Made by a program: the position numbers and the translations under genes
Part shown: positions 4,570-37,163 of the stretch, piece by piece
How the letters are laid out: every line of letters starts with the position of its first letter
Numbering within the stretch: position 1 is the first letter of the stretch
Notes under the pieces: generated by a model
Seen by the model: only the letters and a program-made list of their open reading frames with translations
Told to the model about the DNA's origin: nothing
The model's database searches: none
Source of the DNA: Escherichia coli
GTDB taxonomy: Bacteria; Pseudomonadota; Gammaproteobacteria; Enterobacterales; Enterobacteriaceae
Length of the DNA: 64,000 nt
Strand: one strand, 5' to 3'
NCBI RefSeq assembly: GCF_041248615.1
Contig: NZ_CP158426.1

Positions 4570-5585
4570 GATTTCGCCTCCAGATACGTTGTTAACCAGT
4601 CAGGAATGCGTGACTCCAGCCACATTTGCGGATGAAGTAATGTACCGCCAATAAAGCCAACATGACCGCCATGTTCAGTCAGCTGATACTCCACCTGCGG
4701 GGGGAGACTTTCCGGTTTCGGGATCACCTGATGATCCATAAACGGATCGTCTTTGGCGTGAATAATCAGCGTCGGTTTGGCTATCCGATTGAGCATCGGC
4801 ATGGCGCTACACTGACGATAATAGTCGATAGCGTCAGCGTAGCCGTGAATTCTGGCGGTGATTAGATCGTCAAATTCACGGATGCGACGTACCGATTTTA
4901 ACTGCGCGAGATTAATCGGCAGTGTTCCGGGGTAGGCTGCCAGCTTGCGCGCGGCATTGGCTTTTAACAGGTTCAGCAAGTAACGCTGATAAACGCGGGA
5001 AAAGCCCTTTTCCATATGGTAACTACAGGCCTCCAGCATAAACGGCGCAGAGACAATCACCGCGGCATCAACCGGGAGATCATTGCCTTCTTTTGCCAGC
5101 AAACAGGCCAGCATATTACCGCCGAGCGAATAGCCGACAGCAGCCGTTGGCGCATGACCAAATTCGCGTTGCAGCCAGCGTAAAAACCAACTTGCGTCTT
5201 CGGTTTCGCCCGAATGGTAAATGCGGTGCATACGGTTTGGTTCACCGCTGCATCCGCGAAAATGCATCACCACACCCAGCCAGCCGCGCTTTTGCGCCGC
5301 CTCAACCAGACCGTGGGCGTAAGGGCTATTGAGACTGCCTTCCAGCCCGTGAAACACCACTAAACGCGGTTTATGACGCGCCTGTGCAGGGTCTTCACTC
5401 CACGCGAGATCGACAAAATCGCCGTCGGGCAACTCCAGTCGCTGCCAGTGCGGGGTGAATTTCACCTTGCGACGAAACAGACGCGGCAGCATAGTTTGTA
5501 GATGACAATTGCTAAAGCCGCGCATAGGGATGAATTCAGCACTGCTGCTGAATTCATTGGCATTGGTCGTCGTTATCTGCGCCAT
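4563..5585 (-). CDS. yheT: alpha/beta-fold hydrolase YheT
   Basis: 340-aa ORF with GYSLGG nucleophile-elbow motif; overlaps yheS stop. Confidence 0.9.
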
Positions 5586-8180: not shown

Positions 8181-9985
8181 TGGAAGGTTCCGATTTTTTA
8201 CTCGCAGGAGTGTTGTTTCTCTTCGCGGCGGTGGCTGCGGTGCCGCTGGCATCGCGGCTGGGTATTGGCGCTGTGTTGGGATATTTGCTGGCAGGGATTG
8301 CAATTGGCCCGTGGGGGCTGGGTTTTATTAGCGACGTCGATGAGATCCTCCACTTTTCGGAACTCGGCGTGGTGTTCCTGATGTTTATCATCGGCCTGGA
8401 GTTGAATCCCTCCAAGCTTTGGCAATTGCGGCGTTCGATTTTTGGCGTAGGTGCGGCACAGGTGCTGTTAAGCGCGGCGTTGCTGGCGGGATTATTGATG
8501 CTGACGGATTTCGCCTGGCAGGCGGCGGTGGTCGGTGGTATTGGCCTTGCGATGTCCTCAACCGCAATGGCGTTGCAACTGATGCGTGAGAAAGGGATGA
8601 ATCGCAGCGAATCCGGCCAGCTCGGGTTTTCGGTTCTGCTGTTTCAGGATCTGGCAGTGATCCCGGCACTGGCGTTAGTGCCGTTGTTGGCGGGTTCGGC
8701 AGACGAACATTTCGACTGGATGAAGATCGGCATGAAGGTGCTGGCGTTTGTCGGCATGCTGATTGGCGGGCGCTATTTACTGCGTCCGGTATTCCGCTTT
8801 ATTGCAGCTTCTGGCGTGCGGGAAGTGTTCACCGCCGCGACGTTGCTGCTGGTGTTGGGTTCCGCATTGTTTATGGATGCGCTGGGGCTGTCGATGGCGC
8901 TCGGTACGTTTATTGCGGGCGTGTTGCTGGCAGAAAGCGAATATCGCCACGAACTGGAAACAGCTATCGACCCGTTTAAGGGGTTGCTGCTCGGGCTATT
9001 TTTTATCTCGGTCGGAATGTCGCTCAACCTCGGGGTGCTTTATACCCATCTGTTGTGGGTGGTGTTAAGCGTTATTGTGCTGGTGGCAGTGAAAATTCTC
9101 GTGCTGTATCTGCTGGCGCGATTGTATGGCGTGCGTAGCTCAGAGCGGATGCAGTTTGCTGGCGTGTTGAGTCAGGGCGGTGAGTTTGCCTTTGTGCTCT
9201 TTTCTACTGCTTCTTCGCAACGGTTGTTTCAGGGCGACCAGATGGCGCTATTGCTGGTGACGGTAACGCTTTCCATGATGACCACGCCGCTGCTGATGAA
9301 GCTGGTGGATAAATGGCTATCCCGCCAGTTTAACGGACCGGAAGAAGAAGACGAAAAACCGTGGGTCAACGATGATAAACCGCAGGTCATTGTCGTGGGC
9401 TTCGGGCGTTTTGGGCAGGTGATTGGTCGTTTGCTGATGGCAAATAAAATGCGCATTACTGTGCTGGAGCGGGATATCAGCGCCGTTAACCTGATGCGCA
9501 AATATGGCTACAAAGTTTATTACGGCGACGCCACGCAGGTCGATCTTTTACGTTCTGCGGGTGCAGAGGCCGCTGAGTCTATCGTCATTACCTGTAACGA
9601 GCCGGAAGACACCATGAAGCTGGTGGAAATATGCCAGCAGCACTTTCCGCATTTGCATATTCTTGCGCGAGCGCGCGGACGTGTGGAAGCGCATGAGTTA
9701 TTACAGGCAGGGGTGACGCAGTTTTCCCGTGAAACATTCTCCAGTGCGTTAGAGCTGGGGCGCAAGACGCTGGTCACGCTTGGCATGCATCCGCATCAGG
9801 CACAGCGGGCGCAACTGCATTTTCGCCGCCTGGATATGCGGATGCTGCGAGAGCTCATCCCAATGCATGCCGATACCGTACAAATTTCTCGCGCCAGGGA
9901 AGCCCGACGCGAACTGGAAGAGATTTTCCAGCGTGAAATGCAACAAGAACGACGCCAGCTGGACGGCTGGGATGAATTTGAGTAG
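8180..9985 (+). CDS. kefB: glutathione-gated K+ efflux system KefB
   Basis: 601-aa ORF: N-terminal Na+/H+-exchanger-like membrane domain plus C-terminal KTN/RCK domain ([10 protein letters not shown]). Confidence 0.95.
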
Positions 9986-31063: not shown

Positions 31064-31200
31064 TTTTTTCGCATATTTTTCTTGCAAAGTTGGGTTGAGC
31101 TGGCTAGATTAGCCAGCCAATCTTTTGTATGTCTGTGCGTTTCCATTTGAGTATCCTGAAAACGGGCTTTTCAGCATGGAACGTACATATTAAATAGTAG

Positions 31201-31566
<366 letters not shown>

Positions 31567-33657: not shown

Positions 33658-34065
<408 letters not shown>

Positions 34066-34080
34066 TCTGAAGCAACGTAA

Positions 34081-34107
34081 AAAAACCCGCCCCGGCGGGT
34101 TTTTTTA
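34081..34107 (+). terminator. alpha operon rho-independent terminator
   Basis: aaaaacccgccccggcgggttttttt immediately after rplQ. Confidence 0.8.
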
Positions 34108-34171: not shown

Positions 34172-34540
34172 ATGTGGTTACTTGACCAGTGGGCAGAGCG
34201 TCATATTACTGAGGCACAATCCAAAGGTGAGTTTGATAATCTTCCGGGAAGTGGCGAGCCATTGATTCTGGATGATGATTCACACGTGCCACCAGAATTA
34301 CGTGCGGGGTATCGCTTGCTGAAGAATGCTGGTTGCTTACCGCCAGAACTTGAGCAGCGGAGGGAAGCAATTCAGCTTCTGGATATCCTCAAAGGTATCC
34401 GTCACGATGATCCGCAATATCAAGAGGTTAGTCGTCGATTGTCATTACTGGAATTGAAGCTGCGACAAGCTGGATTGAGTACCGATTTTTTACGCGGCGA
34501 TTATGCTGACAAGTTGTTGAACAAAATCAACGATAACTAG
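34172..34540 (+). CDS. yhdN: DUF1992-family protein YhdN
   Basis: 122-aa ORF MWLLDQWAERHITEAQSKGEFDNLPGSGEPL... Confidence 0.85.
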   Translation: MWLLDQWAERHITEAQSKGEFDNLPGSGEPLILDDDSHVPPELRAGYRLLKNAGCLPPELEQRREAIQLLDILKGIRHDDPQYQEVSRRLSLLELKLRQAGLSTDFLRGDYADKLLNKINDN

Positions 34541-34550
34541 TGGAGTATGT

Positions 34551-34976
34551 ATGTATCGCATTGGTGAGCTGGCAAAAATGGCGGATGTAACACCCGACAC
34601 GATTCGTTATTACGAAAAGCAGCAGATGATGGAGCATGAAGTACGCACCGAAGGTGGGTTTCGCCTGTATACCGAAAGCGATCTCCAGCGATTGAAATTT
34701 ATCCGCCATGCCAGACAACTTGGTTTCAGTCTGGAGTCGATCCGCGAGTTGCTGTCGATCCGTATCGATCCTGAACACCATACCTGTCAGGAGTCAAAAG
34801 GCATTGTGCAGGAAAGATTGCAGGAAGTCGAAGCACGGATAGCCGAGTTGCAGAGTATGCAGCGTTCCCTCCAACGCCTTAACGATGCCTGTTGTGGGAC
34901 CGCCCATAGCAGTGTTTATTGCTCGATTCTTGAAGCTCTTGAACAAGGGGCGAGTGGCGTTAAGAGTGGCTGTTGA
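34551..34976 (+). CDS. zntR: MerR-family Zn(II)-responsive regulator ZntR
   Basis: 141-aa ORF MYRIGELAKMADVTPDTIRYYEKQQMMEHE... with C-terminal Cys/His metal-binding residues. Confidence 0.95.
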   Translation: MYRIGELAKMADVTPDTIRYYEKQQMMEHEVRTEGGFRLYTESDLQRLKFIRHARQLGFSLESIRELLSIRIDPEHHTCQESKGIVQERLQEVEARIAELQSMQRSLQRLNDACCGTAHSSVYCSILEALEQGASGVKSGC

Positions 34977-35031: not shown

Positions 35032-35250
35032 ATGAGCCGATATCAGCATACTAAAGGGCAGATAAAGGATAATGCGATAGAAGCATTACTACATGATCCC
35101 TTATTCCGACAGCGCGTAGAGAAAAATAAGAAGGGGAAAGGCAGTTACATGCGAAAAGGAAAACATGGCAATCGGGGGAACTGGGAGGCCAGTGGCAAGA
35201 AAGTAAATCACTTTTTTACCACTGGCCTTCTGCTTTCAGGCGCTTGTTAA
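35032..35250 (+). CDS. arfA: alternative ribosome-rescue factor ArfA
   Basis: 72-aa [60 protein letters not shown]...; contains internal hairpin (35187..35227). Confidence 0.9.
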
Positions 35251-35657
35251 GAGCGGTTATTCTGCTCTTTCAGCAAATCACGAATTTCTGTCAGTAATAC
35301 TTCTTCTTTAGTTGGTGCAGGCGCGGCTGCTGGTTCTTCTTTTTTCCGATTCAGTTTGTTGATTAGCTTAATCGCCATAAAGATGGCAAAGGCTACAATC
35401 AGAAAATCAAAGACGTTTTGAATGAAGACACCGTAATGCATCACAACAGCAGGGATATCCCCCTGCGCATCGCGTAGCGTGACAGCAAACTGTTTGAAAT
35501 CGATCCCGCCAATTAATAACCCCAGAGGTGGCATAATGATATCGGCAACCAGTGAAGATACAATCTTCCCGAATGCCGCACCGATAATGACACCCACCGC
35601 CAAATCCACCACGTTCCCGCGCATCGCAAATTCGCGAAATTCTTTAATAATGCTCAT
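35247..35657 (-). CDS. mscL: large-conductance mechanosensitive channel MscL
   Basis: 136-aa [54 protein letters not shown]... Confidence 0.97.
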
Positions 35658-35786
35658 GTTATTCTCCCTATGAAGCCGACAATCATAAGTCTAACAAATG
35701 TTAAGCTATTTTCCTGCCAGGAGTGAATTTAATTAATCCCTGATAATCAAAGGGAAATAATAAGGCGTCATTAGACGCCTTATTAA

Positions 35787-37163
35787 TTACAAGAAGAAAG
35801 GACTTGGCTGGAAGAGTCTTTCGACGTCGGTAATAAACTTTTTATCTGTGAGGAACATAATTACGTGATCGCCTTGCTCAATGCGCAGATTGTCATTGGC
35901 AATCATCACGTCGTTTCCACGTACCACCGCTCCAATAATCGTTCCTGGCGGTAGCTTGATTTCATCAATGACTCTGCCGACAACGCGTGAGGTACTTTCA
36001 TCACCGTGAGCAACGGCTTCAATAGCTTCTGCTACGCCGCGGCGCAATGAGGAAACACCAACAATATCTGCTTTTCGCACATGGCTAAGCAACGCGGAAA
36101 TCGTTGCTTGTTGCGGTGAAATCGCAATATCGATCACGCTCCCCTGAACCAGATCCACATAAGCGCGACGCTGGATCAATACCATCACCTTTTTCGCACC
36201 CATACGTTTGGCGAGCATGGCTGACATGATATTGGCCTCGTCATCGTTGGTGACGGCAATAAACAGATCAACTTGATCGATATGTTCTTCGGCCAGCAGT
36301 TCTTGATCCGACGCATCACCAAAAAAGACGATCGTATTCTGCAACTTTTCCGCCAGTTCGGCAGCGCGCTGCTGATTACGTTCGATGAGTTTGACGCTGT
36401 AATCTTTTTCCAGACGACGCGCCAGCCCTGCACCGATATTACCACCACCAACCAGCATGATCCGCTTATACGGTTTTTCCAGTCGCTGTAATTCACTCAT
36501 CACCGCGCGGATATGCTGTGAAGCGGCAATAAAGAACACTTCATCACCCGCTTCAACAATGGTCGAACCTTGCGGACGAATGGGGCGATCATGGCGGAAA
36601 ATTGCTGCCACACGAGTATCGATATGTGGCATATGCTCGCGCATGGTCGAAAGTGCATTACCAATCAGCGGGCCGCCATAATAGGCTTTAACCACAGCCA
36701 GGCTGACTTTACCCTCAGCGAAGTTCACCACCTGCAATGCGCCGGGATATTCAATCAGTCGGTAAATATTATCGATAACCAACTGCTCTGGTGCGATCAG
36801 ATGATCAATCGGTACAGCATCTGAATGAAATAGCTTATCGGCATCGCGCACGTAGTCTGGTGAGCGGATACGAGCGATGCGATTAGGGGTGTTGAAAAGT
36901 GAGTAGGCTACCTGGCAGGCAACCATATTGGTTTCATCTGAACTGGTTACAGCAACCAGCATATCGGCGTCGTCGGCACCTGCCTCCCGCAATACGCGTG
37001 GATGAGAGCCATGCCCCTGCACGACTCGCAGGTCAAATTTATCCTGCAAGGTCCGCAGACGCTCACCGTTGGTATCGACAACAGTAATATCGTTGTTCTC
37101 GCCAACCAGGTTTTCCGCCAGTGTGCCGCCAACCTGGCCGGCACCCAGAATGATAATTTTCAT
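35787..37163 (-). CDS. trkA: K+ uptake regulatory protein TrkA (two NAD-binding RCK domains)
   Basis: 458-aa [22 protein letters not shown]... with second GxGxxG (VGGGNIGAG). Confidence 0.97.

Follow-up and report, generated by a model that had tools for sequence, protein, structure and literature searches.

The segment at 35177-35237 on the plus strand very probably is the intragenic stem-loop of Escherichia coli arfA, at which RNase III generates a non-stop mRNA and by which ArfA, a backup ribosome-rescue protein, is tied to tmRNA capacity. It lies in a stretch of 64,000 nucleotides of E. coli DNA, which in its entirety is referred to here as the window. The gene makes a deliberately stop-less message, and its protein appears only when the main system for dealing with such messages fails. 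The element is already known and has been experimentally characterised since 2011, so its rediscovery adds nothing new; an earlier sequence-only reading of the window is confirmed in its observation, with a corrected extent, and supported in its interpretation. The comparative analysis gives clear evidence of selection on the arfA-strand RNA, which comes from frozen synonymous sites, a 3' arm preserved independently of reading frame, and an asymmetry of wobble pairs between the two strands. Among the folding, comparative and identity results, we found no data that contradict this explanation.

Locus, architecture and stability of the hairpin

The hairpin lies in an open reading frame of 72 codons plus TAA (35032-35250, plus strand) that matches the Pfam ArfA family (PF03889, E = 9e-26) over residues 4-45, the conserved ArfA domain (35041-35166), and that corresponds to arfA in the RefSeq annotation of identical E. 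coli DNA. On the same strand lie rplQ (33682-34065), a DnaJ-like ORF (34172-34540) and zntR (34551-34976). The mscL ORF (35247-35657, minus strand; Pfam MscL, E = 2e-47), which like arfA is in the program-made ORF list, is convergent with arfA and overlaps it by 4 nt (35247-35250); trkA (35787-37163) is also on the minus strand. The DNA of the arfA region matches, at 100% identity, E. coli chromosomes whose annotation reads zntR-arfA-mscL. Of 5426 complete E. coli genomes, 5425 carry this segment, the median being one copy per genome. Only 546 of the 5425 genomes carry the 501-bp zntR-arfA-mscL segment at 99% identity or above, and hairpin DNA identity among E. coli genomes is 96-100%. The window thus belongs to one of the less common E. 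coli lineages, in which the hairpin sequence itself is essentially unchanged.

Several variants and unusual placements were seen. Over 35150-35260, most of the sampled genomes show a single-base difference from the window, not necessarily always at position 35226. In strains DETEC-P80 and SCPM-O-B-8794, C35226T converts a hairpin G-C pair to G·U, and in strain N96 one upper-stem pair is lost through A35202C. One record in the E. coli collection has a plasmid-borne zntR-arfA-mscL segment, a few genomes hold two copies, and annotation places one ArfA of Enterobacter hormaechei on a plasmid.

The sequence-only reading had described two perfectly pairing 9-nt arms across a short loop in the last third of arfA. 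The arms, GGCCAGTGG at 35187-35195 and CCACTGGCC at 35219-35227, are indeed exact reverse complements, and the uninterrupted Watson-Crick run around them extends to 10 bp (35186-35195 with 35219-35228). As the first base of the hairpin falls in codon 49 of 72, the placement in the last third was also correct. The short loop did not hold up: the 23 nt between the arms are mostly paired, forming an 8-bp upper stem and a 5-nt loop.

As drawn by the MFE and centroid folds, the whole regulatory stem-loop occupies 35177-35237 on the plus strand, which is its published extent (arfA nt 146-206; PMC10070815). The 14-bp lower stem, which includes G·U pairs, is formed by a 5' arm at 35182-35195, encoding W51-E-A-S-G55 and containing GGCCAGTGG, and a 3' arm at 35219-35232 containing CCACTGGCC; the 5' arm is near-invariant in 82 aligned sequences. 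A 1x1 C/A mismatch follows, between C35196, the third base of the G55 codon, and A35218. The 8-bp upper stem, backed by covariation as well as by the fold, pairs 35197-35204 with 35210-35217 and is capped by the apical loop AAAUC (35205-35209). An outer 4-bp helix (35177-35180 with 35234-35237) is present in the MFE and centroid folds and is weakly supported: it is poorly kept among relatives, with alignment columns 7/67 unpaired in 59 of the 82 sequences, and it is missing from the RNAalifold consensus of the 82-sequence alignment. Rather than a 9-bp stem with a loop, the arfA stem-loop is a long duplex, imperfect and 22-26 bp in length. At about two helical turns (14 bp, the 1x1 mismatch, 8 bp and the 4 outer pairs), the duplex is of the type that serves as an RNase III substrate. 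It remained the dominant structure when the whole arfA gene and its flanks were folded, and its onset (codon 49, 35177) is downstream of the Pfam ArfA domain.

Folding of the region had been proposed as a check on the sequence-only reading. When run on 35170-35245, it returned a stable hairpin with an MFE of -34.1 kcal/mol, against -19.6 +/- 2.8 kcal/mol in 200 dinucleotide-shuffled sequences, not one of which was as stable (z = -5.1). We also folded 25,578 windows of 60 nt from both strands and merged those that overlapped; the arfA hairpin ranked fourth in stability among the merged sites of the 64-kb window, rRNA operon included. Perfect 9-bp inverted repeats with a loop of 30 nt or less occur at 22 sites in the 64-kb window, where about 7 are expected at random (64000 x 28 / 4^9). 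The bare 9-bp inverted repeat is not rare, and the complete hairpin is far beyond chance.

A search of the whole window against Rfam at gathering thresholds gave no family over the hairpin. At a permissive E-value, only sub-threshold look-alikes of miRNA precursors were returned there (35183-35231; 18-19 bits against thresholds of 72-96). As the arfA element has no Rfam family, there is no curated model against which it could be scored. A consensus terminator scan likewise did not flag the hairpin at 35177-35237, so that a terminator role receives no support from sequence alone. The GC-rich core is followed by UUCUGCUUUC, which is U-rich but interrupted and lies partly within the stem, and no clean U-tract is present 3' of the full stem on the arfA strand. 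We ruled out a REP- or BIME-like repeated element, as the hairpin occurs at a median of one place per E. coli genome and is inside an ORF.

Conservation and selection in Enterobacterales

Relatives were collected by searching one genome per species with an ArfA profile built from a 13-sequence alignment, which yielded 80 Enterobacterales loci; covariation was assessed in an alignment of 82 distinct Enterobacterales sequences. The same hairpin folds in every one of the related Enterobacterales sequences. Across the 82 sequences, 91.2% of cells were paired, compared to 42-61% when the 3' partners were slid by 1-3 columns. Changes on both sides of a pair were found at 11 pairs (69 cells), as against 5-8 pairs (13-28 cells) in the slid controls, and none of 500 shuffles matched the observed values on any of five measures. 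RNAalifold, unaided, recovered 20 of the hairpin pairs. Most of the covariation is in the upper stem; at its closing pair (alignment columns 33/41), 44 sequences have CG, 26 have UA and 5 have UG. Being nearly invariant, the lower stem yields little covariation signal, with two clean compensatory changes in Brenneria. Taken alone, the conservation of the lower stem could also stem from WEASG coding or from the mscL UTR on the opposite strand.

An unusual arrangement was seen in Prodigiosinella confusarubida (L069:1647-1720), where the 3' arm of the hairpin is duplicated in tandem. The string TTTACCACTGGCCTTCTG occurs twice, with the translation FTTGLLFTTGLL, and the 5' arm has two alternative 3' partners as a result.

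Codon usage separates the paired positions from the remainder of the gene. The 5' arm, GGAGGCCAGUGG, is almost invariant across Enterobacterales, and its synonymous sites are frozen: E52 is GAG in 74/74 sequences, A53 is GCC in 72/72 and S54 is AGT in 73/74. In codons 2-49, by comparison, each conserved residue is encoded by 2-6 synonymous codons across the set. The third base of the G55 codon (C35196), the sole unpaired synonymous site in the arm, varies freely (GGC 56, GGT 18). The 3' arm is kept as a nucleotide string, ACCACUGGCCUUCUG, whose translation is TTGLL in 71 loci; in 12 loci from Serratia, Yersinia, Pectobacterium and others, the frame is offset by one base and gives LPLAF. Protein-level conservation of a TTGLL tail was rejected on the grounds that the 3' arm is read in two frames. 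Between the hairpin and the arfA stop codon there are 0-150 nt, so that ORF length ranges from 66 to 116 aa, and the ArfA tails beyond the hairpin are not alignable as protein; cryo-EM structures of ArfA resolve only 46-48 residues (PMC8012679). Selection thus acts on the arfA-sense RNA and not on the encoded peptide, and the sequence past the hairpin evolves unlike coding sequence. The structure of the hairpin, its strength, its conservation, its covariation and the arfA-sense selection are results of the present analysis.

The longest of these frames, 116 codons, is in Serratia marcescens 1001295B_180824_A7, where the mscL stop is 377 nt past the hairpin; this layout suggests an insertion between arfA and mscL.

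Single changes that would preserve pairing are absent from the 5' arm. The synonymous change GCC to GCU, which would give a U·G pair, was found in 0/72 sequences, and C-to-U intermediates occur in the 3' arm at two pairs (10 and 3 sequences) while the matching G-to-A change in the 5' arm was never seen. The sequence of the lower stem is thus kept more strictly than its pairing alone demands. Tentatively, this might reflect a constraint beyond base pairing, although we consider this the less probable case. Candidate constraints may include sequence-specific positioning of RNase III and a need for Watson-Crick pairs on both strands (arfA RNA and the mscL 3' UTR). The codons or nucleotides at the 3' end of the non-stop mRNA may also steer the choice between tmRNA tagging and ArfA/RF2 release.

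The non-stop arfA message and competing explanations

RNase III cleavage, termination, tmRNA tagging and the antisense effect on mscL rest on published E. coli work. The primary descriptions of the E. coli stem-loop date from 2011 (Mol Microbiol 80:1204; Chadani et al. 2011, Genes Genet Syst 86:151) and are cited here as relayed in PMC3989581, PMC8012679 and PMC10070815; the early primary papers on E. coli and proteobacterial arfA named in such accounts are Garza-Sanchez 2011, Chadani 2011 and Schaub 2012. According to the account in PMC10070815, the arfA regulatory stem-loop spans nt 146-206 and has two RNase III sites. The fold obtained here agrees exactly with that extent (35032 + 145 = 35177; 35032 + 205 = 35237). 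In the same account, RNase III cuts release a 54-nt piece that is then divided into a 24-nt fragment (nt 166-189) and a 30-nt fragment (nt 190 to the stop). The fragments reported in this secondary source place the 5' cut at nt 165|166, or 35196|35197, just 3' of C35196, which leaves a 55-codon mRNA, and the second cut at nt 189|190, near 35220|35221 (PMC10070815). A 55-codon mRNA agrees with the report that mature ArfA lacks its last 17-18 residues (PMC8012679).

According to published work, cleavage by RNase III produces a non-stop arfA mRNA, and the protein made from it receives a tmRNA tag and is degraded (PMC3989581; PMC8012679). The level of arfA mRNA rises when rnc is lost or when synonymous mutations weaken the stem, and the cut was mapped within the stem at a place that fits the C-termini of both tagged and untagged ArfA (PMC3989581). 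The arfA site was detected again in vivo, with 2-nt overhangs, in a transcriptome-wide map of RNase III cleavage (PMC6212723). Cells without RNase III still contain a truncated arfA transcript, which ends just past the repeat and was attributed to premature termination (PMC3989581; also PMC8012679); the non-stop outcome therefore does not depend on RNase III alone.

In its gene, its nt 146-206 extent, its architecture and its sequence, strain polymorphisms aside, the hairpin of the window is the published E. coli element, and we noted no difference of substance. This identity upholds the mechanism proposed in the sequence-only reading, namely that RNase III cleaves arfA mRNA to a non-stop transcript and that ArfA is made only when tmRNA rescue is limiting. 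Structure, location and mechanism had been correctly read from the raw sequence; what has to be amended is the extent, which is that of a larger duplex, and what has to be added is premature termination and the link to mscL.

The combined evidence suggests the following sequence of events. RNase III would cut the two arms close to the C/A mismatch that separates the lower from the upper stem, and where RNase III is inactive RNA polymerase would terminate at the hairpin. By either route the arfA mRNA would end at about codon 55 with no stop codon, and translating ribosomes would stall at its 3' end. If tmRNA-SmpB is available, nascent ArfA would be tagged and degraded; where trans-translation is overloaded or lacking, ArfA(1-54/55) would be released untagged, recruit RF2 and rescue stalled ribosomes. 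Because the message has no stop codon and removal of its product depends on tmRNA, the hairpin would make ArfA synthesis report tmRNA capacity. The excised 24- and 30-nt fragments, being complementary to the mscL 3' UTR, would secondarily lower mscL mRNA.

Related systems differ in instructive ways. Proteobacterial arfA genes are expressed from non-stop mRNAs, according to Schaub et al. 2012 (J Biol Chem 287:29765) as relayed in PMC8012679 and PMC10070815, and the present element shares with them a hairpin in the 3' part of the ORF and truncation of the message; we saw such a hairpin in the 82 Enterobacterales sequences and in three distant homologues. The three distant ArfA genes (35-53% identity) have strong hairpins of unrelated sequence with an onset at nearly the same position, nt 139-160 of the gene, and at least one of these is a plain intrinsic terminator (U6, inside the ORF) and not a long RNase III-type duplex. 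Other E. coli RNase III sites lie in or next to mRNAs, for example the coding-region sites of nirB and mltD (PMC5371410), and the arfA site resembles such sites in being a long imperfect intramolecular duplex that is cut in both arms with 2-nt overhangs (PMC6212723). Cleavage of the nirB and mltD type inactivates or destabilises the mRNA, whereas cleaved arfA mRNA is a productive template and its missing stop codon is the signal.

Three other explanations were weighed against the arfA RNase III element. The hairpin might mainly be an intrinsic (Rho-independent) terminator within the ORF, with polymerase stopping after the 3' arm to leave a non-stop mRNA and RNase III playing a secondary part. 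The GC-rich core stem followed by UUCUGCUUUC is in keeping with this, as are the truncated transcript past the repeat in cells without RNase III (PMC3989581; PMC8012679) and a distant ArfA gene (L085) in which a 17-bp stem with a U6 tract forms a textbook terminator from nt 139, the same position in the gene. We nevertheless regard it as improbable as the main function. The consensus scan raised no flag, a clean U-tract is absent after the full stem, and a duplex of at least 22 bp with an internal mismatch exceeds what a terminator needs and suits an RNase III substrate; in addition, rnc deletion raises arfA mRNA and the cuts are mapped inside the stem (PMC3989581; PMC6212723). Termination is a complement to the RNase III explanation and not an alternative to it. 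That the palindrome arose by chance, or as a by-product of the encoded amino acids with no RNA function, draws on the 22 perfect 9-bp inverted repeats in the window and is next to impossible given the z-score of -5.1 for the full hairpin, covariation above all controls, a synonymous freeze confined to paired positions and a 3' arm kept as nucleotides across two reading frames. We excluded it on the covariation, the two-frame 3' arm and the frozen synonymous sites.

The remaining explanation concerns the opposite strand, where the same DNA forms a mirror hairpin within the mscL 3' UTR (35186-35228, minus strand). The element could primarily serve mscL by ending or stabilising its transcript, the hairpin on the arfA strand being a mirror image. 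The minus strand folds well (-29.5 kcal/mol, z = -4.6), and the published mscL 3' UTR (+1 to +64, or about 35246 down to 35183) reaches the base of the hairpin and is reported to be cleaved by RNase III in vitro (PMC10070815). The 24- and 30-nt arfA-derived fragments are complementary to this UTR and lower mscL mRNA (PMC10070815), and mscL is convergent with arfA in all 83 of the related loci. Against this stands the wobble asymmetry: at the 22 core pairs, relatives show 254 instances of G·U and 21 of A·C, and as a G·U pair on the arfA strand is an A·C mismatch on the mscL strand, it is the arfA-sense RNA that has been kept paired. The arfA hairpin is also fully retained in about 16 loci (Serratia, Yersinia, Erwinia, Pantoea and others) in which the mscL stop is 46-377 nt beyond it; in those of these loci whose folds were read, the gap holds a separate terminator consisting of an A-run, a hairpin and a U-run. 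Two distant arfA genes (L085 and L087) have called neighbours with non-MscL Pfam domains and a hairpin at a similar position in the gene, and on the minus strand no U-tract follows the mirror hairpin. A primary role in mscL is accordingly quite unlikely, and the wobble asymmetry, together with the persistence of the hairpin in loci with a separate mscL terminator, favours the arfA strand as primary. A secondary role of the hairpin in mscL regulation is likely.

Other hairpins in the window

A smaller second hairpin, AAGAGCGG / CUGCUCUU at about 35249-35269 (region 35241-35275, plus strand), spans the overlapping arfA and mscL stops. The terminator scan marked 35241-35255 as terminator-like, and a comparable hairpin was present in the folds of many relatives. 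Located in the last mscL codons, this predicted structure could act as a terminator for arfA transcripts that read through the main hairpin.

Two further terminator-like hairpins flank the neighbouring genes. Just past rplQ, a perfect 13-bp hairpin (34078-34107) is flanked by an A-run and a T-run and has weak sub-threshold Rfam matches to sRNA and leader families; its sequence resembles that of a bidirectional terminator closing the alpha operon. Between trkA and mscL, a hairpin on the minus strand (35758-35785) consists of 12 pairs followed by TTTCCCTTTG, and a promoter-like match overlaps it.

The window also contains a complete rRNA operon (44918-50315) with 16S, tRNA-Ile, tRNA-Ala, 23S, 5S, tRNA-Thr and a second 5S. 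This operon is followed by the window's most stable 60-nt hairpin (50256-50315, -32.1 kcal/mol), which presumably is its terminator. Rfam matches included StyR-44 (46790-46889) and the alpha-operon ribosome binding site (31131-31242). Other very stable hairpins comparable to that of arfA, at -30 to -32 kcal/mol per 60 nt, were found on the plus strand at 8221-8280 and 4831-4890, and on the minus strand at 9786-9845, 61846-61905 and 58791-58850.
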